A DNA stretch of 64,000 nt, from NCBI GenBank assembly GCA_963666215.2, contig CAXWPL010000001.1:710371-774370 (forward strand). The letters run 5' to 3'. Source of the stretch: Acidobacteriota bacterium. Lineage in GTDB: Bacteria > Acidobacteriota > UBA890 > WLXD01. The stretch's first letter is position 1; each line of letters begins with the position of its first letter. The position numbers and the translations under genes were made by a program. Shown in pieces: positions 45,205 to 64,000 of the stretch. The notes below the pieces were generated by a model. It saw only the letters and a list, made by a program, of their open reading frames with translations. It did no database searches and had not been told where the DNA came from.

Positions 45205-46579
45205 CGGTGAAGTGGTTGGGGATTGTTACGCAGTACGGCGCTCCTGCTCAAGGGGAACGTCGACGGCGGTGTTGAGTACGGCATCGAGCTTGGCGATGTC
45301 GCGGTAGCCACGAACCCTCCGGAACTTGCTCTCGGCCTCGATGAGTGCAGTAACCGCCCATCGAACGATCATGCTCCCGGAGCGCCACCGCTTTACGTTG
45401 CGGCTGACGTGTTTGATCGTCCCGTTCAGGTTCTCGATCGTATTCGTTGAACGTAACGTCCGAAGCAGCGGCCCCTGAACTCGGAGCCGAGTGACGGTGA
45501 GCGTCTCTTGCATTCCTTCTCTGAGCGAGGCCGCTGCACCGGGGTGATCGGTCTCCAGCTCCTTGACCACGGCGTCGAGCTGCTTGGTCGCTGCCGTGGC
45601 CGTCTCCGCCTTCCACGCCTTGCGGATCTTGGCTGCGAACCAGGGCCGGATATGCCCTGGCAGATGCTCCAATACGTTCTTGATCTTGTGGACACGGCAG
45701 CGCTGGATCAGGGCCCACTCGCCGAACGTGTCGCGCACTGCTTTACGGAGGCCCTTGGAGCCATCGATTACCACCAACCGCGCCCGTTCGACGGGCATGC
45801 CGCGCTCGATCAACTGCCGCAGCAGCGACCGGCACACGTGGGAGCTCTCCGTGGTGCCCTCTACGGCACCCAGCACATGCTTGACGCCGTCCGCGTCGAT
45901 GCCCATGGCGATCACCAACAAGTGCTTGCCCATGTGCGTGCCGTCGATCACCAGCACCGGCAGGTCCACTTCATTGAGCGGTTGGGCCAGGTACTGCTGC
46001 ACCTGCTTGGCTGTACGCGCTACGAACCGCCGCGACACACTCGAGCGACTCGTTCCCGACGAAGCTCGCCCGTCGTCGAGCCGCTCTAACGAGCGCTCGT
46101 ACTTGCGCGTCGTGACGCCGCACAGGATCTGCTCTACGGCGCGCTCTTCGAGCGGATCTGTTGCCTTGAACCTCTCCCAGTGCGGCAGCGGCAGCTCTTG
46201 GCCATCGACGCTCCGAGCCCGCGGCTTGCGTACCTTGACCCGCCGGCCGCCCATCACCAGCGAGCCCTCGTCGTAGCCGTGTCGGTACGCCCGCCGCTGC
46301 TGTGACCGCGCGTAGCGCTCTCCGCAGAGCTCCGCCCGGTCTTCTTCCAGCAGCGAACCCAACACCCCGAAGCCCGCGTCCATGACCAGCGCTCGTAGAT
46401 CCGATCGCGCCGCTACCACTGCCTCCAGGAGCGGGTTCTCTTGGCGCTCCGCTTTCCTACTTGTCTCTGTTCTGCGACTCTTGCTCATGACGGTGATCCT
46501 CCATGCCAGTGGATTGACCCCGACACACTATCGAGGTCGGATCACCGTCACCCTTTTTCAACGGAGCCTGTGACATCCC
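45205..46579 (-). mobile_element. IS256 family element, copy 1 (right inverted repeat missing)
   Basis: Left IR GGGATGTC...CCGTTGAA; similarity to copy 2 ends at about 45205. Confidence 0.88.
45226..46488 (-). CDS. IS256 family transposase
   Basis: LVIDG, AMGIDADGVKHVLG, VIDGSKGL, QRCRVHK, STNTIENLN. Confidence 0.95.
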   Translation of the reverse strand: MSKSRRTETSRKAERQENPLLEAVVAARSDLRALVMDAGFGVLGSLLEEDRAELCGERYARSQQRRAYRHGYDEGSLVMGGRRVKVRKPRARSVDGQELPLPHWERFKATDPLEERAVEQILCGVTTRKYERSLERLDDGRASSGTSRSSVSRRFVARTAKQVQQYLAQPLNEVDLPVLVIDGTHMGKHLLVIAMGIDADGVKHVLGAVEGTTESSHVCRSLLRQLIERGMPVERARLVVIDGSKGLRKAVRDTFGEWALIQRCRVHKIKNVLEHLPGHIRPWFAAKIRKAWKAETATAATKQLDAVVKELETDHPGAAASLREGMQETLTVTRLRVQGPLLRTLRSTNTIENLNGTIKHVSRNVKRWRSGSMIVRWAVTALIEAESKFRRVRGYRDIAKLDAVLNTAVDVPLEQERRTA

Positions 46580-46598
46580 CCATCGCGCGGTGTATTGT

Positions 46599-51850: not shown

Positions 51851-51958
51851 GGCCGCCTAGGCTAGCGGTCCTCGAGCTAGTGCACAACGGTCACGAATAC
51901 GTGGCCAAGAGCCGCGACAGCCGCATCCATGCGCAGGGTAGATCCACGTCGCGCTAGT

Positions 51959-52663
51959 TGTGTTTTCTAAGTAGGTTGTTCACATCGGGGCTCACTTCTG
52001 AGATCAATGGGGTTGTTCAAAAGACTCCACGACCTCAGAAGGAGCGCCCGATGCAGCTGCATGGTAACGCCCGCACGACGCCGTATATACGCCGAGAGAT
52101 GGTCCGCCGAGTCCGGGAGCGGGCGGAGCCCGTGACGGAAACGGCGGCGGCTCTGGGCGTGTCGACTCGAACGGTCTACAAGTGGCTGGGTAGATACGAG
52201 CAAGAAGGTGAAGCGGGGCTCTTGGATCGATCCAGCCGGCCGCAGGGCTGTCCGCACCACACCGCCACTGGAGTTGTGCGGCAGATCGACAAGTTGCGGC
52301 GGCGGCGACTGACGGCCTGGCAGATCAGCGAGAGGTTGGCTGTGCTGCGCTCGACCGTCTCCGCGTGGCTGAGCCGACTGGGTCTAGGCAGGCTATGCCC
52401 TCGAGCCCAAGCCCGAGATCGTCCGCTACGAGTACAAGAGCCCCGGTGACCTACTGCACCTGGACACCAAGAATCTGGCCCGCATCCGACGACCGGGGCA
52501 CCGCATCCATGGCGATCGCTCTCGGAAGGCCTACGGCGTCGGTTGGGAGAACGCACACGTCGCTATCGACGATCACTCACGGGTGGCGTACGTCGAGGTG
52601 CTGCCTGCCGAGGACCAACACACCTGCACGGCGTTCCTGCAACGAGCCGTCGAGCACTTCGCG
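51959..52663 (+). mobile_element. IS481 family remnant (frameshifted, cut by IS256)
   Basis: CTAG then TGT...TAGGTTGT end; ATG 52051 MQLHGNARTT, GLLDRSSRP; after a frameshift near 52400, PGDLLHLDTK, HVAIDDHSR. Confidence 0.88.
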
Positions 52664-54070
52664 GTGATGTCTCGCTTTCCGTTGAAAAAGGTGACGGTGA
52701 TCCGACCTCGATAGTGTGTCGGGGTCAATCCACTAGGCATGGAGGATCACCGTCATGAGCAAGAGTCGCAGAACAGAGACAAGTAGGAAAGCGGAGCGCC
52801 AAGAGAACCCGCTCCTGGAGGCAGTGGTAGCGGCGCGATCGGATCTACGAGCGCTGGTCATGGACGCGGGCTTCGGGGTGTTGGGTTCGCTGCTGGAAGA
52901 AGACCGGGCGGAGCTCTGCGGAGAGCGCTACGCGCGGTCACAGCAGCGGCGGGCGTACCGACACGGCTACGACGAGGGCTCGCTGGTGATGGGCGGCCGG
53001 CGGGTCAAGGTACGCAAGCCGCGGGCTCGGAGCGTCGATGGCCAAGAGCTGCCGCTGCCGCACTGGGAGAGGTTCAAGGCAACAGATCCGCTCGAAGAGC
53101 GCGCCGTAGAGCAGATCCTGTGCGGCGTCACGACGCGCAAGTACGAGCGCTCGTTAGAGCAGCTCGACGACGGGCGAGCTTCGTCGGGAACGAGTCGCTC
53201 GAGTGTGTCGCGGCGGTTCGTAGCGCGTACAGCCAAGCAGGTGCAGCAGTACCTGGCCCAACCGCTCAATGAAGTGGACCTGCCGGTGCTGGTGATCGAC
53301 GGCACGCACATGGGCAAGCACTTGTTGGTGATCGCCATGGGCATCGACGCGGACGGCGTCAAGCATGTGCTGGGTGTCGTAGAGGGCACCACGGAGAGCT
53401 CCCACGTGTGCCGGTCGCTGCTGCGGCAGTTGATCGAGCGCGGCATGCCCGTCGAACGGGCGCGGTTGGTGGTAATCGATGGCTCCAAGGGCCTCCGTAA
53501 AGCAGTGCGCGACACGTTCGGCGAGTGGGCCCTGATCCAGCGCTGCCGTGTCCACAAGATCAAGAATGTATTGGAGCATCTGCCAGGGCATATCCGGCCC
53601 TGGTTCGCAGCCAAGATCCGCAAGGCGTGGAAGGCGGAGACGGCCACGGCAGCGACCAAGCAGCTCGACGCCGTGGTCAAGGAGCTGGAGACCGATCACC
53701 CCGGTGCAGCGGCCTCGCTCAGAGAAGGAATGCAAGAGACGCTCACCGTCACTCGGCTCCGAGTTCAGGGGCCGCTGCTTCGGACGTTACGTTCAACGAA
53801 TACGATCGAGAACCTGAACGGGACGATCAAACACGTCAGCCGCAACGTAAAGCGGTGGCGCTCCGGGAGCATGATCGTTCGATGGGCGGTTACTGCACTC
53901 ATCGAGGCCGAGAGCAAGTTCCGGAGGGTTCGTGGCTACCGCGACATCGCCAAGCTCGATGCCGCACTCAACACCGCCGTCGACGTTCCCCTTGAGCAGG
54001 AGCGCCGTACTGCGTAACAATCCCCAACCACTTCACCGTCGCCTTAGTTCAACGGACGGTGGGACATCCC
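52664..54070 (+). mobile_element. IS256 family element, copy 2 (both inverted repeats present)
   Basis: Left IR GTGATGTC...CCGTTGAA; right IR TTCAACGG...GACATCCC. Confidence 0.9.
52755..54017 (+). CDS. IS256 family transposase
   Basis: Nearly identical to 45226..46488 (three amino acid differences seen). Confidence 0.95.
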   Translation: MSKSRRTETSRKAERQENPLLEAVVAARSDLRALVMDAGFGVLGSLLEEDRAELCGERYARSQQRRAYRHGYDEGSLVMGGRRVKVRKPRARSVDGQELPLPHWERFKATDPLEERAVEQILCGVTTRKYERSLEQLDDGRASSGTSRSSVSRRFVARTAKQVQQYLAQPLNEVDLPVLVIDGTHMGKHLLVIAMGIDADGVKHVLGVVEGTTESSHVCRSLLRQLIERGMPVERARLVVIDGSKGLRKAVRDTFGEWALIQRCRVHKIKNVLEHLPGHIRPWFAAKIRKAWKAETATAATKQLDAVVKELETDHPGAAASLREGMQETLTVTRLRVQGPLLRTLRSTNTIENLNGTIKHVSRNVKRWRSGSMIVRWAVTALIEAESKFRRVRGYRDIAKLDAALNTAVDVPLEQERRTA

Positions 54071-54426
54071 CGCGCAGCTGGACGACCGGCGAGGCCACGT
54101 ACTGGGATAACTATGGGGCCCCGTCAGCGGGCCCAGCTAGACCGGCACGAGACACTGAAGAGCCTCGGCCCCCGCAACCTAGAGGCACCGCCCGACTCGC
54201 CGCCGGCAAAGCTTTCGGCCCGCTGATCGACAGCACTTCCGAGCACAGCGCGCTCGCGCTGCCCTTCCTGCGGGACCAAAACTTTCTCCAGTTCCTCCGA
54301 GGGCACTCATTCCATTTATTTCTTGTTAGGCGGGACCCCCCGTACGGTTCGGCGGTCGTCGGACCTAGCTAGCTGGCCAGCCAAGCGATCGTTGGCGCCC
54401 AGCCAAGCCAACGCACGCAGTGTCTC

Positions 54427-54473
54427 CCAAGCCTGACCAAGTCAGGCTCTCGCTCGTAGAGCGGGTCGCGCGC
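54427..54473 (+). repeat. double-hairpin direct repeat, copy B
   Basis: ccaAGCCTGAccaagTCAGGCTctcgctcgtagagcgggtcgcgcgc. Confidence 0.85.
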
Positions 54474-54628
54474 TGTACGAATCTCTCAATGGCCTCGTCG
54501 GGCAACCCTAGTCCCCTCCGAGCTGAAGTGCACCCCGAGGAATTCGAAACCTTTCTCGATGCGGCCGATAATATATCTTGCTCGGATGCCTGTTCATGCC
54601 CACGCCTTAGGATTGAGCTAAGACACAG

Positions 54629-56692
54629 ATGCCAAGCTCTCGCCGCCGGCGCCTTGTTCTCGGAGCCCTCGCGCTCCTGGCCGCGCTGGCGATCAACAAG
54701 TGGTCGCTCGAGATCCTGTTCTCGCGGGATCTCCGCATCACCGACCTAGTCACGCTCGGGACCATCTGGGGGTTCCAGCTCGTTGCGACGGTTTTCGGCG
54801 CGTGGCTCATTATCGGTAGACCCCAGCTGCCACGACCGCTGCGCGTGGCAGTCGATCACAAAGTGCTCGGCCCAGCCCTGATGGTGGCACTTGTGGGCGC
54901 GACGGCTTTCGGCGCGTACGTCGATGTCACTGCCTACGGGCTCTTGCGAAACGACCGCGAGATGCTGCGCCCGACCGCCGAGATGGTGATGGCCGAGGAG
55001 GTCATCGCCGAGCTGCGGCCGCACATGCGCGGCGTTGCCCGAGCCCTGCGCAACCTGAGCCTGCCGGATCGAAGCTCACCGGGACTCTGGAGCGACGAGG
55101 TGGAGGTCATCGATCTCGAGGCCGGACACACGCAGCTCATCGACAAGCGCCTCGCGCTGCAGCAGACGGCCATGCACGCCGCCGATCGCACGGCGGGTTC
55201 GCCGCAGGAGCTCGAGCTGTGGAGCCAACTGTTCGCGGACGTGGCGTGGATCGACAGCGCCGAAACCCATGTGGCGAGCGGTGAGTTCCTCGACGAGGCG
55301 CGCCTGCGGTTCCGGACCCTCGTCGACTTCGAGGCCTTGGCGCAACTGTTGGACGGCAGGTCGGCGACGTTGCGCGGCGAGATCCGGATCGGCTGGCAAC
55401 GTGATGCCCCTGGAGCGGCCTGGCGCATCGAGCTCTTCGAGACGATCGAGCTGGAGCAGCTCGCCGCGGCATCGAGCCTGTTCCGCGACGTGATCCCCGA
55501 GGTGCTCCCCGACCCTGCCACTCTGCAAGCGGCAACCCGCTCGCTGCATGATGAGCTCACGGCGGACAGTATTCGCAGCAACGTGGCGGGAGAAAGGAAC
55601 CGCTTTTCGATCGCGCCGACGCTCGTGCATCCGTCGGTTGCGGTCGTCGACATCGACGCCGACGGCTGGGACGACCTCTACTTCATGCCGGCTTGGGGCA
55701 AGAATCTACTGCTCCGGAATCGCGGTGATGGCACGTTCGAAGACGTCGCGCCCGCACTGGGTCTCGACCTCGAAGGCACGGTGGCAGCCCTGTTCGCCGA
55801 CTACGACAACGACGGCGACGCCGACGTCTTCATCTCGGCAGGACGGGACTCGGCTCGCTACCTCCGCAACGATGCGGGTCGTTTCGTCGACCGTTCGGTG
55901 CTGGCCGACGGTGCGCCTCTGCCACGACAGGTCACATCGATGTCGGTGGCCGACTTCGACGGAGACGGCCTGCTCGACGTTTACATGGCTACCTACGCCG
56001 CCGGGCCGGTGGATCTGTCGGTTGGCGCGCGGCTTCTGACCTCGGCGCTGGAGGGCGCCGAACGGCCCGGCGCCCTCAATCGTGGCGGGCCACCGAACGT
56101 GCTGCTGCGCAATGTGGACGGATCCAACTTCGAGCGTGTAGGCGAGGAGACGATTCCTACCGTACGGCGCTGGAGCTTCCAGGGAACCTGGGGCGATTTC
56201 GATGCCGACGGCGACGCGGATCTGTACGTTGCCAACGACTACGCGCCCGACAACTTGTTGGAGAACCGAGCCGGCCGGCTGGTCGACATCAGTGAGGCCG
56301 CGGGCATCGACCGGCGCGGCTTCGGTATGGGCGCGAGCTGGGGAGACTTCGATCAGGACGGCTGGCTCGATCTGTACATCACCAACATGTCGAGCCACTC
56401 GGGGGCCCGCATCACCGCCCGCTTCCCACAGCTCCCCGAGGCCTACAAGGAAGCGGCGCGCGGCAACTGGCTGCTGCGCAGCGTTACGAATCCAGAAACC
56501 GCTCCTTCGTCGCCGGTGAGGCGATTCGAGAAGGTCTCGTCGATCGACGGCACCGGCTACCCCGTACAAGAAGCGGGCTGGGGGTGGGGTTCGCAGTTCG
56601 TCGACCTCGACAACGACGGCGACCTCGACATCTACGCCCCGGCCGGGTACTACACGGCGCCGCCGTCGGTGGCGACCGATGTCGACACGTGA
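54629..56692 (+). CDS. membrane-anchored FG-GAP repeat protein (CRTAC1/UnbV-like), N-terminal part
   Basis: N-terminal transmembrane helices; repeated D.D.DG..D motifs (DIDADGWDD, DYDNDGDAD, DFDGDGLLD, DFDQDGWLD), WGWGSQFVD. Confidence 0.88.
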   Translation: MPSSRRRRLVLGALALLAALAINKWSLEILFSRDLRITDLVTLGTIWGFQLVATVFGAWLIIGRPQLPRPLRVAVDHKVLGPALMVALVGATAFGAYVDVTAYGLLRNDREMLRPTAEMVMAEEVIAELRPHMRGVARALRNLSLPDRSSPGLWSDEVEVIDLEAGHTQLIDKRLALQQTAMHAADRTAGSPQELELWSQLFADVAWIDSAETHVASGEFLDEARLRFRTLVDFEALAQLLDGRSATLRGEIRIGWQRDAPGAAWRIELFETIELEQLAAASSLFRDVIPEVLPDPATLQAATRSLHDELTADSIRSNVAGERNRFSIAPTLVHPSVAVVDIDADGWDDLYFMPAWGKNLLLRNRGDGTFEDVAPALGLDLEGTVAALFADYDNDGDADVFISAGRDSARYLRNDAGRFVDRSVLADGAPLPRQVTSMSVADFDGDGLLDVYMATYAAGPVDLSVGARLLTSALEGAERPGALNRGGPPNVLLRNVDGSNFERVGEETIPTVRRWSFQGTWGDFDADGDADLYVANDYAPDNLLENRAGRLVDISEAAGIDRRGFGMGASWGDFDQDGWLDLYITNMSSHSGARITARFPQLPEAYKEAARGNWLLRSVTNPETAPSSPVRRFEKVSSIDGTGYPVQEAGWGWGSQFVDLDNDGDLDIYAPAGYYTAPPSVATDVDT

Positions 56693-56723
56693 CCCACGCT
56701 CTGGCGCTCGGTCGTGCGCGGGG
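56693..56723 (+). promoter_or_regulatory. SECIS-like hairpin directly after the in-frame TGA
   Basis: CUCU-G-GCGC-UCGGUCGU-GCGC-GGGG stem-loop with apical GU 19-20 nt after the UGA. Confidence 0.5.
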
Positions 56724-57800
56724 CAGCGAATCACTCGAGGCGAGAGCCAGAAGAGAGACGCGGGATCGCCGTCCAGCTTCGCGAGGGCGCCTCGTATAGC
56801 GGCCGCGAGCGCAACCGCGTGTTCCTCAATCAGCTCGACGAGCCCGGTCGCGACTTCTGCGAGCTTGGCGGGGTGTCGGGAGCCGACGACATCGGCGACA
56901 CGCGCTCGTTCTCCAGGCTCGACTACAACCGCGACGGTGCCCCCGACCTCGCGCTCGCCAACCTCAATCGCCCGGTTACACGACTGCTGCGCAACGAGAT
57001 CGCGCCCGACAAGCTCGGCGGCTACGTCGCCATTCGGCTCGAGGGAGGCAATCGGCAGGCGGCAACGAGCTCGGAATGGAGCACGCGCGACGCTTGTGGA
57101 GCACGAATCGAGATCGAGCGCAGCGACGACGTGCTACTGGTGCGCGAGCACCGCTGCGGCGAGGGTTTTGCCGGGCAGAATTCAAGCACCGTGATCGTCG
57201 GCCTTGGAGAGCACGACGCACACTCGCTGACCGTGACCTGGCCCTCCGGCAAGCAGCAGCGTTCGACCTCCGTGTCGGCCGGCGACCTGGTGACGGTCTA
57301 CGAGAACCCGGAGCACGCCCCGACCGGCGATGCATTCGTTCACACGCGCTACGCCGTGCCGCTGCCAGCGTCGCCGCGCCGGGCGAAAGCGAACGATCTC
57401 GGCTCGCCTCCGCTGCCTGGGGCCGTTGTGCAAGAATTGACGCGAGGCGCGCGCCTGACGTTGCTGACCACCATGGCAACCTGGTGCATCGCCTGCCAGC
57501 ACGACGTGCCACAGCTCGAGCTGCTGCTGGAGCGTTTCTCCGACAGCGAGCTCAACATTGTCGGCCTTCCCATCGAACCCACCGACGATGACGCCAAGCT
57601 CGCCGCCTGGGTGGAGCAGTTCCAACCACCCTACGAGCTCGTTACCGAGCTGACGGCCGACGAGCGCACCGCGGTGATGGCGAGCGTTGCCGAGCTCACC
57701 GGCTACGTTTCTTGTTGACGAGCACGGCACGCTGATCGCCGTGCAGCTCGGTGTGCCAACCGTGTCCGACATCCGCCGACATCTGGGAATCAAACCGTGA
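56693..57800 (+). CDS. in-frame continuation: ASPIC/UnbV domain plus TlpA-like thioredoxin (frameshift near 57705)
   Basis: SYSGRERNRVFLN, DYNRDG, RDACGARI, GEGFAGQNS, WPSG, ATWCIAC; alternate frame TFLVDEHG...GVPTVSDIRR ends at TGA 57800. Confidence 0.75.
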
Positions 57801-58759
57801 TCGAGCTTTCTCGCGACGACTTCGCCCAGGCCTACGAGCGCGTTTCGCCGCACGTCTATCGCACACCGATGCTGACGTCGCGGCTGCTGAGCGAGCACAC
57901 CGGCTTCGATATTCGGCTCAAGGCCGAGCTGTTCCAGCGCGGCGGCTCGTACAAGGTGCGCGGGCCGATGAACAAGTTCAGCTACCTGAGCGACGAGCAG
58001 AAGGCGCGCGGAGTGGTTTGCTCGTCGGCCGGCAACCACGCGCAGGGGGTGGCGCTGGCCGCCAAGCTGCACGGCATCCGAGCCGTGGTCTGCATGGCCG
58101 AGAACGCCACCCAGTCGAAGATCGACGCCACCGAAGGCTACGGTGCCGAGGTCGTGCTGCACGGCCAGATTTGGGACGAGGCCAACGAAAAGGCGCTCGA
58201 GATTGTCGAGAAGGAAGGGCTGACCTACATCCATCCATTCGACGATCCGCAGCTCATCGCCGGTCAGGGCACCGTGGGCTGGGAGATCTACCACGACTGG
58301 CCGGAAGTCGAAGTGGCGATCGTGCCGATTGGCGGCGGCGGGCTGATTTCCGGCACCTCGATGGCACTCAAGTCGCTCAACCCGGATATCCGCGTGATCG
58401 GCGTCGAGTCGTCGGGCGCGCCGGCGATGCAGCGCAGCGTCGAGGCCGGCGAGCTGGTGACGCTCGAAGAGGTCGACTGTGTGATCGACGGCCTGCGCGT
58501 GAAGCGAGTGGGGCAGCACACCTTCTCGGTGGTACAGCGCTTCGTCGACGAGATCGTTACCCTCCCCGACGAGCAGATTTTCGAGGCCCTGATCTGGACG
58601 ATGGCGCACTGCAAGGTAACGCCCGAGGGCGCGGCCGCGGCCCCAGTGGGCGCGTTGCTCCAAGGACTGATCGACGCGCCCGCCGGCTCGAAGGTGGTCT
58701 GCGTCCTGAGCGGCGGCAATCTGGGCCTGGACCAACTGCGCGGACTGAGCTGGAACTGA
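57797..58759 (+). CDS. threonine/serine dehydratase (catabolic-type length)
   Basis: KAELFQRGGSYKVRG, SSAGNHAQG, HPFDD...AGQGT, PIGGGGL, SGGN. Confidence 0.92.
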   Translation: MIELSRDDFAQAYERVSPHVYRTPMLTSRLLSEHTGFDIRLKAELFQRGGSYKVRGPMNKFSYLSDEQKARGVVCSSAGNHAQGVALAAKLHGIRAVVCMAENATQSKIDATEGYGAEVVLHGQIWDEANEKALEIVEKEGLTYIHPFDDPQLIAGQGTVGWEIYHDWPEVEVAIVPIGGGGLISGTSMALKSLNPDIRVIGVESSGAPAMQRSVEAGELVTLEEVDCVIDGLRVKRVGQHTFSVVQRFVDEIVTLPDEQIFEALIWTMAHCKVTPEGAAAAPVGALLQGLIDAPAGSKVVCVLSGGNLGLDQLRGLSWN

Positions 58760-58941
58760 GCTCGGCCAGCTCGGGCACCTCGGTCCGGCTCCCCACCCGG
58801 AAACCGGATCGCCGCGCCCGTCTCTTTCTAAGAGAGGCCCCGTTCGCAGGCATTTGCACGCCGACCGGGCGAACGACGCAAGATCCCGAGAGCGCACAAA
58901 AGGCGCGGGGAAAACTTGTGATGACGTTATATGATGTCGGC

Positions 58942-59169
58942 ATGAGAACGATCGTGGAACTGCCCAACCGTCAGCTGGATGCGCTCGCGGCGATCTGTCG
59001 CGCGGAGAAAATCTCTCGTGCGGAGGCCATCCGCCGCGCTATCGATTCCTGGATCGAGACTGTCCCATCCGAAGCGGTCGAAGCCTTCGGACTATGGCGC
59101 GAACGCGGTATCGATGCGCTGCAGTACGAGGCCTCACTCCGGGCCGAGTGGGACCGGCCGGAGTCGTGA
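58942..59169 (+). CDS. ribbon-helix-helix (CopG) antitoxin
   Basis: MRTIVELP...SRAEAIRRAI...AFGLW...LRAEW; palindrome GACGTTATATGATGTC just upstream. Confidence 0.85.
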   Translation: MRTIVELPNRQLDALAAICRAEKISRAEAIRRAIDSWIETVPSEAVEAFGLWRERGIDALQYEASLRAEWDRPES

Positions 59170-59531
59170 GAGTCGTCTTCGACACGAACGTGCTCATCGA
59201 CTACCTCAACGGCGTTCCACAAGCGAAAGAGGAAATCGCACGCTACAAGAAACGGTATGTCAGCATCGCGACCTGGATGGAGGTGCTGGCCGGTGCCCGC
59301 GATGGCGCAGAGATGGACCTGCTGCGTGTCTTCCTTGCAGGTTTCGAGATTGTGGAGCTCGACCGGCCGATCGCCGAAGCGGCGATTGAGCTACGGAGGA
59401 CGCACCGTGTTCGACTTCCCGATGTCATCATTTGGGCGACGGCTCGAACGCTGGACGGGCTCCTCGTTACACGCAACACGCGCGACTTCCCGGAACGTGA
59501 CCCCGACGTCCGCGTCCCCTATCGCCTGTAA
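59166..59531 (+). CDS. vapC: PIN-domain VapC toxin
   Basis: VFDTNVLIDYL, TWMEVLAG, LPDVIIWATA, LVTRNTRDF; GTGA overlap with the antitoxin stop. Confidence 0.9.
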   Translation: MRVVFDTNVLIDYLNGVPQAKEEIARYKKRYVSIATWMEVLAGARDGAEMDLLRVFLAGFEIVELDRPIAEAAIELRRTHRVRLPDVIIWATARTLDGLLVTRNTRDFPERDPDVRVPYRL

Positions 59532-59552
59532 GTCGGTCCCTCGACTACGCGA

Positions 59553-61736
59553 ATGAACACGACGCTTCCGTTCGATACTGGGCAGTCCCACGCCGACGTC
59601 ATCGAGGTTGTGCGTCGGTACTGGGGCTTCGAGATGCTGCGGCCGCTGCAGGCCGAGGCGGTGCGTGCCGGACTCGATCGCCGCGACTCGCTGGTAGTGC
59701 TGCCGACCGGCGGTGGCAAGTCGCTGTGTTATCAGGTGCCGCCGTTGTTGGCCGGGCGAACCGACATTGTGGTGTCGCCGCTGATCTCTCTGATGAAGGA
59801 CCAGGTTGACGGCCTGCGCGCCAACGGATATCCGGCGGCCGCCGTGCACAGCGGGCTCGACCGGCAAGAGCGCGCCGAGGCCGAGCGCTTTATTGCGTCG
59901 GGCGACTGTCGACTGGCGTTCGTGTCGCCGGAGCGCCTGGTGACATCGTGGTTTCTGCAGACCGTCGAGCGACTGGGCATTCGCTCGTTCGCGGTGGACG
60001 AGGCGCATTGCATTAGCCACTGGGGTCACGATTTCCGGCCCGAGTACCGGCAGCTGGCGGTGCTCAAGGAACGCATCCCCGGCGCCAGCGTGCACGCCTA
60101 CACCGCCACCGCGACGCCGCGCGTTCGCGACGACATCGTGGCGCAGCTCGGGCTCGAGGACGCCCAGGTGCTGGTGGGACGCTTCGACCGGCCGAATCTC
60201 ACCTACCGACTGGTGCCGCGGCTCGACCTGCGAGCCCAGGTGGAAGAGATTCTGGCTCGGCATACGAACCAGGCGGCCATCATCTACTGCATCAGCCGCA
60301 AGGACACCGAGAAGCTCGCCGAGCATCTCATCAAGCGCGGTCACCGCGCCGCCTGCTACCACGCCGGTCTCGAGCCAGCCGTTCGCCGCCGCACGCAGGA
60401 GGCGTTCACCAACGAACAGATGGACGTGGTCGCCGCGACGGTGGCGTTCGGCATGGGCATCGATCGCAGCGATGTGCGGTGCGTCATCCATGCCGCGATG
60501 CCCAAGTCGATCGAGCACTACCAACAGGAGACGGGCCGCGCGGGTCGTGATGGCCTCGAGGCCGAGTGCGTGCTGCTCAACTCTCCGGCCGACGCGGTGC
60601 GCTGGCGACAGTTGCTGGAGCGCAACGCGCAGGAAAACGTGCCGGCTGCGTCTGGCGTCTCGGGCATTTCCGATAGCGAGCCGCCGCCGCCCGACCTCTA
60701 CGACGCCGACGACCCCGGAATCGCGCAGGAAGAGCCTCCGTATCCTTATGAAGAGCCTCATGAAGAGCCTCTCGATGGAGGGCCTGTGGATGAAGGGCCT
60801 CTCGACCACGACGCGGCGATCCCGCGAGTTGTGGTGGCACGCGAGAGCAAGCTCAGGGCCGTGACGCCGCCAGCCACGGGGGTCGACCCACAGAAGGCCG
60901 CGCTGGAGCTGCTCGACCAGATGCGGCGCTTCTGCACCCCCGGCACCTGCCGCCACCAGGCGCTGTCGGAGTACTTCGGCCAGACGTACGAGCCCCCGTG
61001 CAGCTCCGAGGCTATCGACACCCACGCCGACGGCGATGACGACGACGCTGGCGTCCAGATCGCCGAAGGCTGTGGCGCCTGCGACGTTTGCCTCGGGGAA
61101 ACCGACGGCTGGGTGGACGGCACTCGCGACGCCCAGATGGTGCTGTCTTGCGTGGCTCGTCTCGGCCAGATGGGCACCGCGTACGGCATGAACCACGTGG
61201 TCGATGTGCTGCGCGGCGCCGACACCCAGTCGATCCGTTCGCGCGGCCACAACACACTCTCGACCTGGGGCGTGATGTCGGCAAAGGGACGCAAGGAGTT
61301 GCTGCATCTGACCTTCCAGCTCATCGACCAGGCGGTGCTCGAGCGCAGCGACGGCGAGTACCCGGTGCTGACGCTCAACGACCGCTCGCTCGAGGTACTG
61401 CGCGGCGAGCGCACCGTGCGGCTCGCCCCGGTGCGCGTCCGAGCCGCCAAGACCTCTGCGCGTGACGCGGCGTCGTGGCACGGCGTCGATGTCGATCTGT
61501 TCGAGCGCCTGCGCGGACTTCGCACCGAGATCGCGCGCGCCCGCGACGTGCCGCCCTACCTCATCTTCAACGACGCCAGCCTGCGCGACATGGCCAGCAG
61601 CCGTCCCGAGACTCCACAAGAATTCCTCGCCATCCACGGCGTGGGCGACAAGAAGCTTGCCGACTTCGGTGAGACTTTCCTCGCCTGCATTGCCGGAGCG
61701 CCCGAGTCGATCGAGACCGCCAGCGACACCGCCTAG
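59553..61736 (+). CDS. recQ: RecQ DNA helicase with acidic insertions
   Basis: LPTGGGKSLCYQ, DEAHCISHWGHDFRPEY, ATVAFGMGID, QETGRAGRDG, Zn-binding CR..CGACDVC, winged-helix and HRDC domains. Confidence 0.95.
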   Translation: MNTTLPFDTGQSHADVIEVVRRYWGFEMLRPLQAEAVRAGLDRRDSLVVLPTGGGKSLCYQVPPLLAGRTDIVVSPLISLMKDQVDGLRANGYPAAAVHSGLDRQERAEAERFIASGDCRLAFVSPERLVTSWFLQTVERLGIRSFAVDEAHCISHWGHDFRPEYRQLAVLKERIPGASVHAYTATATPRVRDDIVAQLGLEDAQVLVGRFDRPNLTYRLVPRLDLRAQVEEILARHTNQAAIIYCISRKDTEKLAEHLIKRGHRAACYHAGLEPAVRRRTQEAFTNEQMDVVAATVAFGMGIDRSDVRCVIHAAMPKSIEHYQQETGRAGRDGLEAECVLLNSPADAVRWRQLLERNAQENVPAASGVSGISDSEPPPPDLYDADDPGIAQEEPPYPYEEPHEEPLDGGPVDEGPLDHDAAIPRVVVARESKLRAVTPPATGVDPQKAALELLDQMRRFCTPGTCRHQALSEYFGQTYEPPCSSEAIDTHADGDDDDAGVQIAEGCGACDVCLGETDGWVDGTRDAQMVLSCVARLGQMGTAYGMNHVVDVLRGADTQSIRSRGHNTLSTWGVMSAKGRKELLHLTFQLIDQAVLERSDGEYPVLTLNDRSLEVLRGERTVRLAPVRVRAAKTSARDAASWHGVDVDLFERLRGLRTEIARARDVPPYLIFNDASLRDMASSRPETPQEFLAIHGVGDKKLADFGETFLACIAGAPESIETASDTA

Positions 61737-61748
61737 CGTCGACTCTGG

Positions 61749-61985
61749 CTAGCGCCGGCCGATCGCGAACAGGTGCCGGTCGCCGCGCACGTACAAGCGG
61801 CCGTTGGCGATCGCGGGCGACGCCCAGAGCGACTCGCCCATCGAGTTGGTCGCCAGCACCTCGTGCTCGGGCCCGGCGCGGACCACGAACATGTCGCCGT
61901 CTTGCCCCGACAGCACGATGTTGCTGCCGAACGCAACGGGTGACGCTACAAAGCGCGTCGGCAGTGGCACGCGGCCCGCCGTGCC
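61749..61985 (-). pseudogene. C-terminal remnant of a PQQ-like beta-propeller protein
   Basis: FVASPVAF...DGDMFVVRAG..HEVLATNSMGE..WASPAIANGRLYVRG..HLFAIG. Confidence 0.7.
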
Positions 61986-62288
61986 GCTGATCGCGATCGC
62001 CGGAATTGGCAACAAGCACCGCCGCCACAGCAGCAACGAGCGCGGCGCCGTTGGAACGGCTGAAACTCATGCCCCTCTGTTCGTATCGGATCACACGCTT
62101 CCTCCCGAGCCGCTGAGCTCCCGTTTCGACCTCTTTCGATCAATCTCGATCGACTGCCATTGTCGAGTCTCGACGCGACCGCGGAACAGTACTTGATTCG
62201 AACCTACCCGTCGTCGGATCCGATTCGGACGGCCTCGCTCGATCAGCGCCCGCCTGCGCTTCGTGTTCTGACGCGCTCCAGCAGCTCC

Positions 62289-63414
62289 TCAACCAGCTCG
62301 GTTTGGCGATCCCCGCTGAACCGCGTGGTCGCCAGGCGGCGGGCCTCTTGGCCCATCGTGCGAACCGTCGCCCCGGTCGGCGGCGAGAGACGCGATGGAT
62401 CTTGCTAGTTTCTCGATGTCGCCCGACGGGTAGAAGCGCGCGGCACCGGTGAGATGCTCGCGCATGTAATCGATATCAACGGTGACAATGGGCAGACCCG
62501 CGGCGAGAAACTCGAACAGCTTCAACGGCGACCAGTACCAGGCCCAGTTGTAGCGCCGGGGTGCGCGGCCAGATTGAATGGCGCCAAGCCCACGTCGGCC
62601 GCCGCCAAGCGCGCCGGCACCTCGAGATGAGGAACGGCGCCGGGAAACTCGACACGATCCTCCACACCCGCCGAACGAGCGACGGCTCGGGCGGCGTCCC
62701 AGCGTGGGCCGTGGCCGAGGAACGAAACCTGGATGTCGACGCCGAGCTCCACACACCTGGCCACAGCCCGCACCAGATCTTCGGCGCCGTGCCTAGGCGC
62801 GAAAACTGCTCAGGTACACGCAACGCAACGGTCCGTCGTTACTGGCCGGCGGCCCGGGCTGGAATCGCTCGGTGTCGGCGCCATTGACAACGTCGACGTA
62901 GCCCTCCCGATACTCCTCCGGCATCACCAGCGCCGCCTGTCCGTAGAACGCCGAGGCCATCTTCCATCTGCGCACGACGCCATCGCGCGATGGGCCGTAT
63001 GAGAGAAAGCGCGTCGAGGCGATCGCGCCACGAGCCCGGGTACGGTCGCGCCGGCGTATGCACTTCGGCCACGGCCGGAACGCCCAGCGCGCGCGCAGCC
63101 AGCAACCCCGTACCACCGAAAGCATGGAAACGCTCGATGACGATCTCGGGCCCGACCCGCTCGGCAATGCGCCGGACCTGTTTTCGTGCGGTCCACTGCA
63201 GCTGGTCCATCGCCAGCCACGGTCGTACCGGATAAAGGCGAATGCCCTGCAACCAGTCCGCGGTCTCGGCGGTCGTGCCAGGCTCGCCTGCTTGGGCAAC
63301 GAGATGCAGCTCGTGCCCGCGCCGAACCAATCCGCGCGCCAGCTCGATGGTGTGAACGCTGCCGCCGTGCGAGCCCGGAATCGGAATCCCGGTGGTCACG
63401 TAGAGAATGCGCAA
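62289..63414 (-). pseudogene. GT4 family glycosyltransferase with multiple frameshifts
   Basis: LRILYV...HGGSVH, VVNGADTERF, FLGHGP, VEFPGAVPH, SPLKLFEFLAAGLPIV lie in different frames. Confidence 0.8.
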
Positions 63415-63416
63415 GT

Positions 63417-64000
63417 TCAGCGGTGCTGCGGATTCGGGCGATCCGGGCGGCTCAGGGGACCGCCGTCCCAGTTCTGCGCACTCGAGATGTTCGGCATGCC
63501 GTGGTCGGCGCCGTTCCATCCCTGGAAGCCCTCCATGCGGAACGCCCAGAAGCCGCTGGTGGAGTCGGAAACCACAATCAACCCGTCGGCGTTGCGCACG
63601 TCGACGCCGAAGGCGCCGTTGAAGACGTCGGTGAAATCGGTATTCAACGACCCGAGGTAGGTGTCGTAGTAGGCGACGGTCTGCGGATTCTTCGGGTCGG
63701 CGAGCGTGAAGACTTGCAGCCCGTCGACGTAGCCCGAGACGAACACGTAGGGCCAGCGCACCTCGTGGTTATGAACCAGATGGCGCCAGTCGGCGGTCCA
63801 GGCCGAGATCGGCGTTCTGATGTTGCTGGTCTCGCCATCGAGCGCCGGCTTGAGGTCGAAAATCCGCAGCGGCGCGTATCGGTATTCGGTTTCGCCAATG
63901 GCATAGCGACCATCGGGCGACGGCGTGAAAGTGTGACCCCATTGCACGCCGCTGATCCCGGTGAGCGAGATCCGCAACGCCGGGTTCTCGAGGTCGGTCA
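63417..64000 (-). CDS. LVIVD-repeat-like protein, 3' part (runs off the window)
   Basis: PLRIFDL, VHNHEVRWPYVFVSGYVDGLQVF, VAYYDT, NGAFGVDVR, SDSTSGFW. Confidence 0.7.
   Translation of the reverse strand, partial: TDLENPALRISLTGISGVQWGHTFTPSPDGRYAIGETEYRYAPLRIFDLKPALDGETSNIRTPISAWTADWRHLVHNHEVRWPYVFVSGYVDGLQVFTLADPKNPQTVAYYDTYLGSLNTDFTDVFNGAFGVDVRNADGLIVVSDSTSGFWAFRMEGFQGWNGADHGMPNISSAQNWDGGPLSRPDRPNPQHR

Follow-up and report, generated by a model that had tools for sequence, protein, structure and literature searches.

Bacterial selenoproteins of the Escherichia coli formate dehydrogenase type are recognizable by an in-frame UGA that is followed immediately, within the coding sequence, by a stem-loop with an apical G-U, in genomes in which selA, selB, selC and selD are present. 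Hosts of such a UGA and bacterial selenocysteine insertion sequence (bSECIS) include thioredoxin-fold and molybdopterin enzymes. The CRTAC1/ASPIC-UnbV proteins combine FG-GAP repeats with a UnbV_ASPIC domain; their bacterial members have no assigned function, and CRTAC1 itself is not known to have an enzymatic activity. Two further systems bear on what follows, namely the TlpA/ResA/DsbE (CcmG) thiol:disulfide reductases and the Neisseria PilB type of protein (thioredoxin–MsrA–MsrB), in which a periplasmic catalytic residue is regenerated by a fused TlpA-like CxxC domain. Here, we describe a gene with features of each, found in a 64,000-nt stretch of an Acidobacteriota genome (GenBank assembly GCA_963666215.2, contig CAXWPL010000001.1, forward-strand positions 710,371–774,370; herein referred to as the window, with positions counted from its first letter). 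The gene occupies 54629..57718 on the plus strand (1029 codons and a terminal TGA) and has a single internal TGA at 56690–56692, which very probably encodes selenocysteine (Sec) at residue 688 of a CRTAC1-like propeller protein.

The likeness to the formate dehydrogenase type extends to every feature listed above, whereas the host differs, being a CRTAC1-like beta-propeller, and Cys homologs are rare. The protein is CRTAC1-like in that FG-GAP_3, FG-GAP and UnbV_ASPIC all score above their cut-offs and the fold matches a solved CRTAC1 structure (9etn); it departs from CRTAC1 in the Sec that starts the helix after the last blade, in a usually fused TlpA-like domain and in an extra N-terminal domain. 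The resemblance to TlpA, ResA and DsbE is carried by the C-terminal domain of a canonical paralog in the same genome, which has the motif W-A-T-W-C-x-P-C, and a DsbD_TM protein is also encoded there; unlike those reductases, the domain is here fused to its presumed client, and in the window copy it is truncated and falls below family cut-offs. PilB is similar in concept only, as a thioredoxin-like recycling domain fused to a redox module: there is no sequence relationship, and here a propeller bearing one Sec takes the place of the catalytic module.

The gene consists of two open reading frames (ORFs), 54629..56692 and 56714..57718, that share a frame (offset 2085 = 3 × 695 nt), the first ending at the TGA at 56690–56692. 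The sequence-only reading that preceded this analysis had proposed one frame split solely by that codon, and the ORF list, the nucleotide sequence itself and a translation that renders TGA as U all bear this out: reading through both ORFs yields 1029 residues, with U688 in the context ...ATDVDT-U-PTLWRSVV... and a stop at TGA 57716–57718. The allele is real, as public contigs spanning 56603–58000 (the TGA, the hairpin described below and the 3′ end) are identical in 4/4 sequencing runs from four studies, one of which may be the source of the assembly. The gene is also identical in a second copy on another contig (C4) of the same genome (G000).

Conservation of the TGA was examined by a six-frame search with residues 528–900 against 41 genomes (the window's own genome plus 10 from its family, 15 from its order and 15 from its phylum). 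Exactly one TGA is present in each of the best 24 rows, which come from 20 of the 41 genomes and are 33–40% identical over the searched part. Among the relatives fetched from the window's phylum (L023–L041; 28–35% identical over their full length), 19/19 carry the TGA in the same alignment column as the window copy, more than would be expected by chance, within the motif (K)TM(N/E)DT-U-S-x-F-W-R-H-V-V-A; the family gene itself ends in TAG in 13 of these 19. The same column is TGA in the canonical paralog of the window's own genome (locus L051, on contig C5 of G000) and in the sub-branch loci L049 and L050. A cross-phylum scan with a profile built from the family, using one genome per species, returned 77 loci, mostly ordinary FG-GAP/ASPIC proteins; of the 16 that are close homologs, 12 have TGA at the column, against one with G, two with A and one with E. 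These 12 belong to Pyrinomonadaceae and other Acidobacteriota, to Planctomycetota (Pirellulaceae, Phycisphaerae) and to Verrucomicrobiota (Roseibacillus, Akkermansiaceae), so that the codon recurs in independent genomes, as the sequence-only reading had asked. A motif common to the putative Sec forms of all these phyla is D(T/L)-U-S-x-F-W-R-(H/Q)-V-V; the conserved peptide S-x-F-W-R-H-V-V begins directly after the TGA, and the frame is kept in every locus extracted. Protein databases record the same site as an end: a word-based search with the canonical paralog found 116 close proteins, of which 101 end exactly at the Sec column and 15 span it. Where the source gives a name, the proteins that end there are called hypothetical, VCBS repeat-containing or FG-GAP (some are labelled Acidobacteriota), and none of the 101 is named a selenoprotein.

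The UGA is followed by a SECIS-like hairpin at 56699..56723 (plus strand), recognized by folding and by the position of the hairpin in the family, with CUCU/GGGG and GCGC/GCGC stems and an apical G-U at 56711–56712, which is where an apical GU at +19/+20 had been claimed. In the relatives, the sequence after the UGA reads AGC NNN UUC U-GGCGCCAC-GUN-GUGGCGUC and forms an 8-bp stem starting 10 nt after the UGA, with a 3-base, G-U-initial loop at 18 nt; in the window copy the register is shifted by one base, giving a GGUC apex, a loop at about 17 nt and a minimum free energy (MFE) of −15 kcal/mol. Both versions satisfy all the bSECIS constraints stated in a recent review (loop 3–9 nt, stem 4–16 bp, a G at loop position 1 or 2, spacing 16–37 nt, MFE ≤ −7.5 kcal/mol; PMC13188914). 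An ungapped alignment of 31 of the 35 known Sec-form sequences (leaving out L026 as a near-duplicate, L030 as containing N, and L039 and L049 as having a different hairpin) has 81% of its cells paired, and its covariation score of 0.205 exceeds both the shuffled alignments (0.092 ± 0.015; 0/500 reach it) and all six slid controls. At pair 24–34, for example, the wobble position of the Arg codon faces the first base of the codon that follows V-V; the pair is CG in 17 sequences, GU in 7, AU, GC and UA in 2 each, and unpaired in one; these changes alter the encoded residue (A, S, P or T) yet preserve the base pair. Three homologs that have no TGA and still retain S-F-F-W-R-Q-(V/L)-V have this pair broken in 3/3 cases (GG, AG, GA), with 3–4 of the 8 pairs left. 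The hairpin first noticed in the window thus lies at the position of a family hairpin that covaries across homologs and is lost in these non-TGA forms. The two sequences set aside for their different hairpin, L039 and L049, form a Sec sub-branch without a thioredoxin domain; its motif is D(F/L)-U-L-P-(F/Y)-I-(V/L)-S-A-V-A-H-I, and the hairpin peculiar to it combines GCGC/GCGC arms with a GGUC loop that is set three bases farther away from the UGA.

The genome has all the machinery that the sequence-only reading had proposed to look for: selA (518 bits), selB (340 bits), a tRNA-Sec (67.8 bits; anticodon tca as called by ARAGORN) and selD (341 bits; locus L001, G000:C2:219892-220839), the last itself a selenoprotein with an in-frame TGA at GG-U-AAK. 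TGA ends 812 of 1768 (46%) long coding-like ORFs in G000, with TAG ending nearly as many (803), so TGA is an ordinary stop in this genome and is not reassigned. Within the phylum sample selA exceeds the cut-off in 36/41 genomes, and its co-occurrence with the Sec form consequently does not discriminate there. Outside the phylum it is above cut-off in 6/6 tested Sec-form genomes; the search did not find it in Tunturiibacter gelidiferens, whose genome has a Gly form, but three genomes carrying Ala or Glu forms do have it. None of the findings that would have told against Sec (missing sel genes, or a column with neither conserved TGA nor hairpin) was made, and the assignment of residue 688 as Sec draws its support from the conserved column, the covarying SECIS-type hairpin and the complete Sec machinery together.

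Proteins of the family start with an N-terminal domain whose fold is unknown, continue with a CRTAC1-like FG-GAP propeller and UnbV_ASPIC and usually end in a C-terminal TlpA-like thioredoxin domain. In the window protein (all features on the plus strand), hydrophobic helices at residues 4–31, 37–61 and 80–97 (54638..54919; AlphaFold2 (AF2) model, at low predicted local distance difference test (pLDDT) values) are a likely membrane anchor or export signal. The FG-GAP repeats, with DxDxDG calcium-type loops, lie at 55634..56638 (Pfam FG-GAP_3, 119.8 bits, 7.2e-35; FG-GAP, 68.5 bits, 3.9e-19) and the UnbV_ASPIC domain at 57092..57289 (residues 822–887; PF07593, 53.3 bits), all three matches above cut-off in one chain. 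The TlpA/ResA-like thioredoxin domain (57443..57715), which stops before the cis-Pro strand, is recognized by a match to the family's own thioredoxin profile, by an AhpC-TSA match at residues 939–1014 that stays below the cut-off of 26 (20.1 bits), and by weak, sub-threshold NCBIfam matches to TlpA, DsbE, ResA and WAxxUGC_long that are confined to this part of the protein; its CxxC motif is WCIAC at residues 952–956 (CxxC at 57485–57496). The same domain of the canonical paralog contains a complete thioredoxin fold including the cis-Pro strand, scores above the family cut-off, and is closest to solved structures of TlpA (1jfu, 2e-16), ResA and DsbE.

Modelled with AF2, the window protein (pLDDT 69.1, predicted template modelling (TM) score 0.71) is closest among solved structures to murine CRTAC1 (9etn_A; Foldseek E 4e-24, TM-score 0.70 on the target). 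A model of the Cys-form homolog P0154 (pLDDT 81.7, predicted TM-score 0.83) aligns with the same structure over 451 residues at Z 43.8, a root-mean-square deviation of 2.3 Å and 26% identity. In both models the residue in question, Sec in the window protein (starting a predicted helix at residues 688–700) and Cys in P0154, is the first of the helix that follows the last propeller blade, and in the P0154 model the first Cys of the CxxC is likewise placed at a helix N-terminus, a position typical of redox-active residues. A complex prediction between the propeller–ASPIC part and the thioredoxin domain of P0154 scored 0.00 and gave no answer. The relatives have signal-peptide-like N-termini and the window protein an RRRR stretch followed by the three hydrophobic helices, from which we infer that the protein is exported or membrane-anchored and acts outside the cytoplasm. 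The DsbD_TM protein encoded in G000 scores 131.7 bits.

An exhaustive profile search over 1.84 billion representatives yielded 312,866 matches at E ≤ 0.001, placing the family within a very large superfamily, and 13 proteins among the best 150 of these end exactly before the Sec column (...DT). Cys occupies the column in three homologs (P0032, P0112 and P0154), a small minority; TGA thus does align with Cys in these three, the non-TGA homologs being otherwise mostly non-Cys. In more distant members of the FG-GAP/ASPIC family the column is gapped or is occupied by W, V, M, R or F. We inferred a maximum-likelihood tree (IQ-TREE quick search, LG+G4) from 89 rows (33 Sec, 2 Cys and 54 other forms) with the Sec column masked and with L026, L030 and L022 left out as duplicates or as containing N. 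The Sec forms are scattered over the entire subfamily, and well-supported branches force at least nine state changes. Monophyly of the Sec and Cys forms was rejected (approximately unbiased test, p 6.5e-5, log-likelihood difference 852), for a group that was named after the tree had been seen.

Loss of Sec goes with loss or degradation of the thioredoxin CxxC. A thioredoxin domain is present in 29 of the 33 Sec forms (three are without it and one is cut by a contig end), and the CxxC is intact in 29/29; both Cys forms in the tree set also carry it. Among the 54 other forms, 32 have no thioredoxin domain, 15 have a degenerate motif and seven have an intact CxxC, and the overall comparison is therefore 31/34 Sec/Cys forms versus 7/54 others. 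The link survives 11 phylogenetically independent contrasts, of which about 6.3 show the CxxC changing together with Sec/Cys, 0.0 show the reverse and 4.6 are ties (median p 0.03 in a sign test). The idea that the Sec is paired with the protein's own C-terminal thioredoxin, first put forward from the window sequence, gains from this distribution, which supports a Sec/CxxC redox relay.

We hypothesize the following sequence of events. The hairpin 10 nt after the UGA, lying inside the coding sequence for W-R-x-V-V, would recruit SelB and tRNA-Sec; the Sec thus inserted, exposed and redox-active, would react with an oxidized extracytoplasmic substrate; the fused CxxC domain would return it to the selenol; and this domain may in turn draw electrons from a DsbD/CcdA-type membrane protein. 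A catalytic role for the Sec and the direction of electron flow are what we infer from the distribution and placement of the motifs, and we lean slightly toward the Sec/CxxC relay itself. The explanation as a whole, one exported or membrane-anchored Sec protein of a widespread family with recycling of the Sec by the CxxC, appears likely. A further extension, which we offer tentatively and which falls a little short of probable, is that these proteins are phylum-spanning extracytoplasmic selenoenzymes built on the CRTAC1/ASPIC-UnbV propeller, with a catalytic Sec recycled by the fused CxxC, in which Sec is ancestral and the redox module has been dropped repeatedly while the scaffold was kept.

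The window copy differs from its relatives at the 3′ end. It is 37% identical to P0111, the nearest full-length homolog, over 937 residues and can be aligned with it as far as ...PPYELV, after which the window protein stops about 25 residues later; P0111 and all domain-bearing relatives continue for about 45 more residues, including the cis-Pro strand. A late frameshift had been suspected here and was not seen: tblastn with P0111 finds no continuation in any other frame, so the gene is truncated at its 3′ end, about 45 residues short of P0111, and is not frameshifted. Because its thioredoxin domain is truncated, the relay may be impaired in this particular gene. The tree places the window copy on a long branch beside P0111, which carries Ser at the column and is 43% identical to it, and well away from the canonical paralog. 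It is a divergent paralog that keeps the CxxC together with the candidate Sec codon and hairpin, and the complete canonical paralog stands at G000:C5.

Several observations weigh against the explanation proposed above. Sec/Cys pairing across homologs, the usual hallmark of a catalytic Sec, is weak in this family, and such a rarity of Cys is unusual for a catalytic Sec: the 45 close full-length proteins that span the column among the best 150 of the profile matches have S 8, E 8, D 7, N 6, A 5, Q 3, R 2, L 2, C 2, I 1 and G 1, and the 15 spanning proteins among the 116 close ones have S in eight cases, C in one, and V, L, A, T, D and I once each. The CxxC is retained by nine forms that are neither Sec nor Cys (seven in the tree set as well as P0152 and P0153), and the thioredoxin domain is missing from three Sec forms. 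The neighborhoods of 12 family genes (139 ORFs) contain no conserved functional partner and no adjoining DsbD/CcdA. As to the hairpin, its single-sequence folding energy is not significantly better than that of dinucleotide shuffles (z is +0.52 in the window and between −0.8 and −2.2 in four relatives), no Rfam family matches 56500–56900 at E ≤ 10 (apart from two chance miRNA-like matches), and half of the stem is encoded by the conserved peptide, so that much of the sequence conservation could be at the protein level. Finally, the window copy is without the cis-Pro part of the thioredoxin fold and follows immediately after an IS256-like element, within an 11.3-kb segment of which the assembly contains two copies. 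The richness of the window in insertion sequences (IS) and the truncated 3′ end would also speak for the TGA being a nonsense mutation in a once continuous gene, which is nevertheless extremely improbable given that the same column is TGA in 19/19 relatives at 28–35% identity and in 12/16 close homologs of the cross-phylum scan, that 101/116 close database proteins end exactly there, and that the hairpin covaries. Public gene callers, for their part, annotate two genes, which would here be an FG-GAP protein ending at the TGA (its database counterparts being named hypothetical, VCBS repeat-containing or FG-GAP) and an ASPIC/thioredoxin protein starting at GTG 56714; the same layout could arise from near-cognate read-through or from a reassigned TGA. 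In the window, however, the conserved post-TGA peptide lies upstream of the first possible restart codon, which contradicts a division into two genes. The frame is kept throughout, CRTAC1 runs through the junction as a single chain (model range 231–783), a TGA that ends 46% of long ORFs is not reassigned, and a SelB-type hairpin and a full Sec machinery are present; we consider this group of alternatives very improbable.

Two other alternatives accept the Sec and dispute what it does. The inserted Sec may be no catalytic partner of the thioredoxin, serving instead as a metal or metalloid ligand, as part of a structural selenenylsulfide, or as a selenium-dependent gate on synthesis of the C-terminal half; the highly variable column that is rarely Cys in non-Sec homologs, the three Sec forms without a thioredoxin domain and the nine non-Sec/Cys forms with a CxxC would all sit well with this, as would the fact that no second Cys near the Sec site is conserved among the invariant alignment columns. 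Set against it are the co-evolution of Sec/Cys at the column with an intact CxxC and the predicted location of the Sec at a helix N-terminus, like the first Cys of a CxxC, and on balance we think it unlikely. The other alternative concerns the window copy alone: Sec would be real for the family, and this copy would be a decaying or functionally reduced paralog without a working thioredoxin domain, perhaps still translated. The truncated thioredoxin domain and the adjacent IS element in a duplicated stretch suggest that the copy could be decaying; the region matches just positions 7–85 of the 130-position family thioredoxin profile and ends about 45 residues short, AhpC-TSA is below cut-off, pLDDT falls below 50 over most of residues 911–1029, the branch is long with a nearest relative that is 43% identical, and a complete canonical paralog exists in the same genome. 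Yet 1029 codons are open apart from the conserved TGA, the hairpin with its G-U is kept at the family position and the CxxC is kept as well, and the allele is identical in 4/4 runs from four studies, on which grounds we regard decay as a minority possibility, somewhat unlikely for this copy.

A Sec-containing CRTAC1-like family, as read here, would be a widespread selenoprotein family that is uncatalogued as far as our searches reach, and a new kind of host for the standard bacterial Sec-insertion signal. The 2026 review cited above lists 119 prokaryotic selenoprotein families and subfamilies in its Table 1 (PMC13188914), with no FG-GAP, ASPIC/UnbV, CRTAC1 or propeller entry among them, and those words are absent from its text. 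NCBIfam release 20.0 has no model for the family, and nothing in it matches the propeller part. The full-text literature yielded nothing that links FG-GAP, ASPIC/UnbV, CRTAC1 or VCBS with selenocysteine, in a search that left subscription journals and supplementary tables outside its scope, where an earlier mention is possible. The remark made from the window alone that the family seemed uncharacterized agrees with its absence from the 119-family catalog and from NCBIfam.

The consequences would reach beyond this locus. At least 101 public protein clusters are cut at the Sec codon and filed as "hypothetical" or "VCBS repeat-containing," which means that this gene is systematically misannotated in the genomes of several environmental phyla. 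The prokaryotic selenoproteome would gain a family in which Sec lies outside the thioredoxin fold, in a large exported propeller, and the co-evolution of Sec with the CxxC offers a testable redox hypothesis for the CRTAC1/ASPIC-UnbV superfamily. If the Sec is indeed catalytic and the family consists of propeller selenoenzymes, this would be the first catalytic clue for a superfamily of more than 300,000 members without known enzymatic function. The repeated replacement of Sec by residues other than Cys is unusual, and bears on how selenoprotein functions are gained and discarded.

The last 11.3 kb of contig C1 (window 52678–64000) are 99.86% identical to G000:C4:464317-475632. All 16 differences fall outside the selenoprotein gene, and the second copy reflects either a true duplication or an artefact of assembly at an IS element. 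The IS256-like element (Transposase_mut, 420 aa) occurs at 52678–54088 and again, in the opposite orientation, at 45205–46590, each window copy having about 27–29 genomic matches at 96–100% identity, and a repeat of about 715 nt at 51950–52662 has about 41 genomic copies at about 90% identity. Downstream, the next gene (57797–58756) encodes a pyridoxal phosphate-dependent enzyme and is followed at 58900–59528 by overlapping ribbon-helix-helix and PIN-domain proteins, a VapBC-like toxin–antitoxin pair; a 748-aa ORF on the minus strand (59394–61637) has no Pfam match at E ≤ 0.001. Across the 12 family neighborhoods, MacB/FtsX permeases are found in three, selA in two, and an Rrf2 regulator with DUF1800/DUF1501 in two. 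In one genus belonging to the family of the window (L129 in G001, L131 in G007), selA is located downstream of the selenoprotein gene at a distance of 0.5–4 kb. In two genomes that represent different families (L130 in G003, L132 in G012), the family gene is flanked by an Rrf2-family regulator and a DUF1800/DUF1501 pair.

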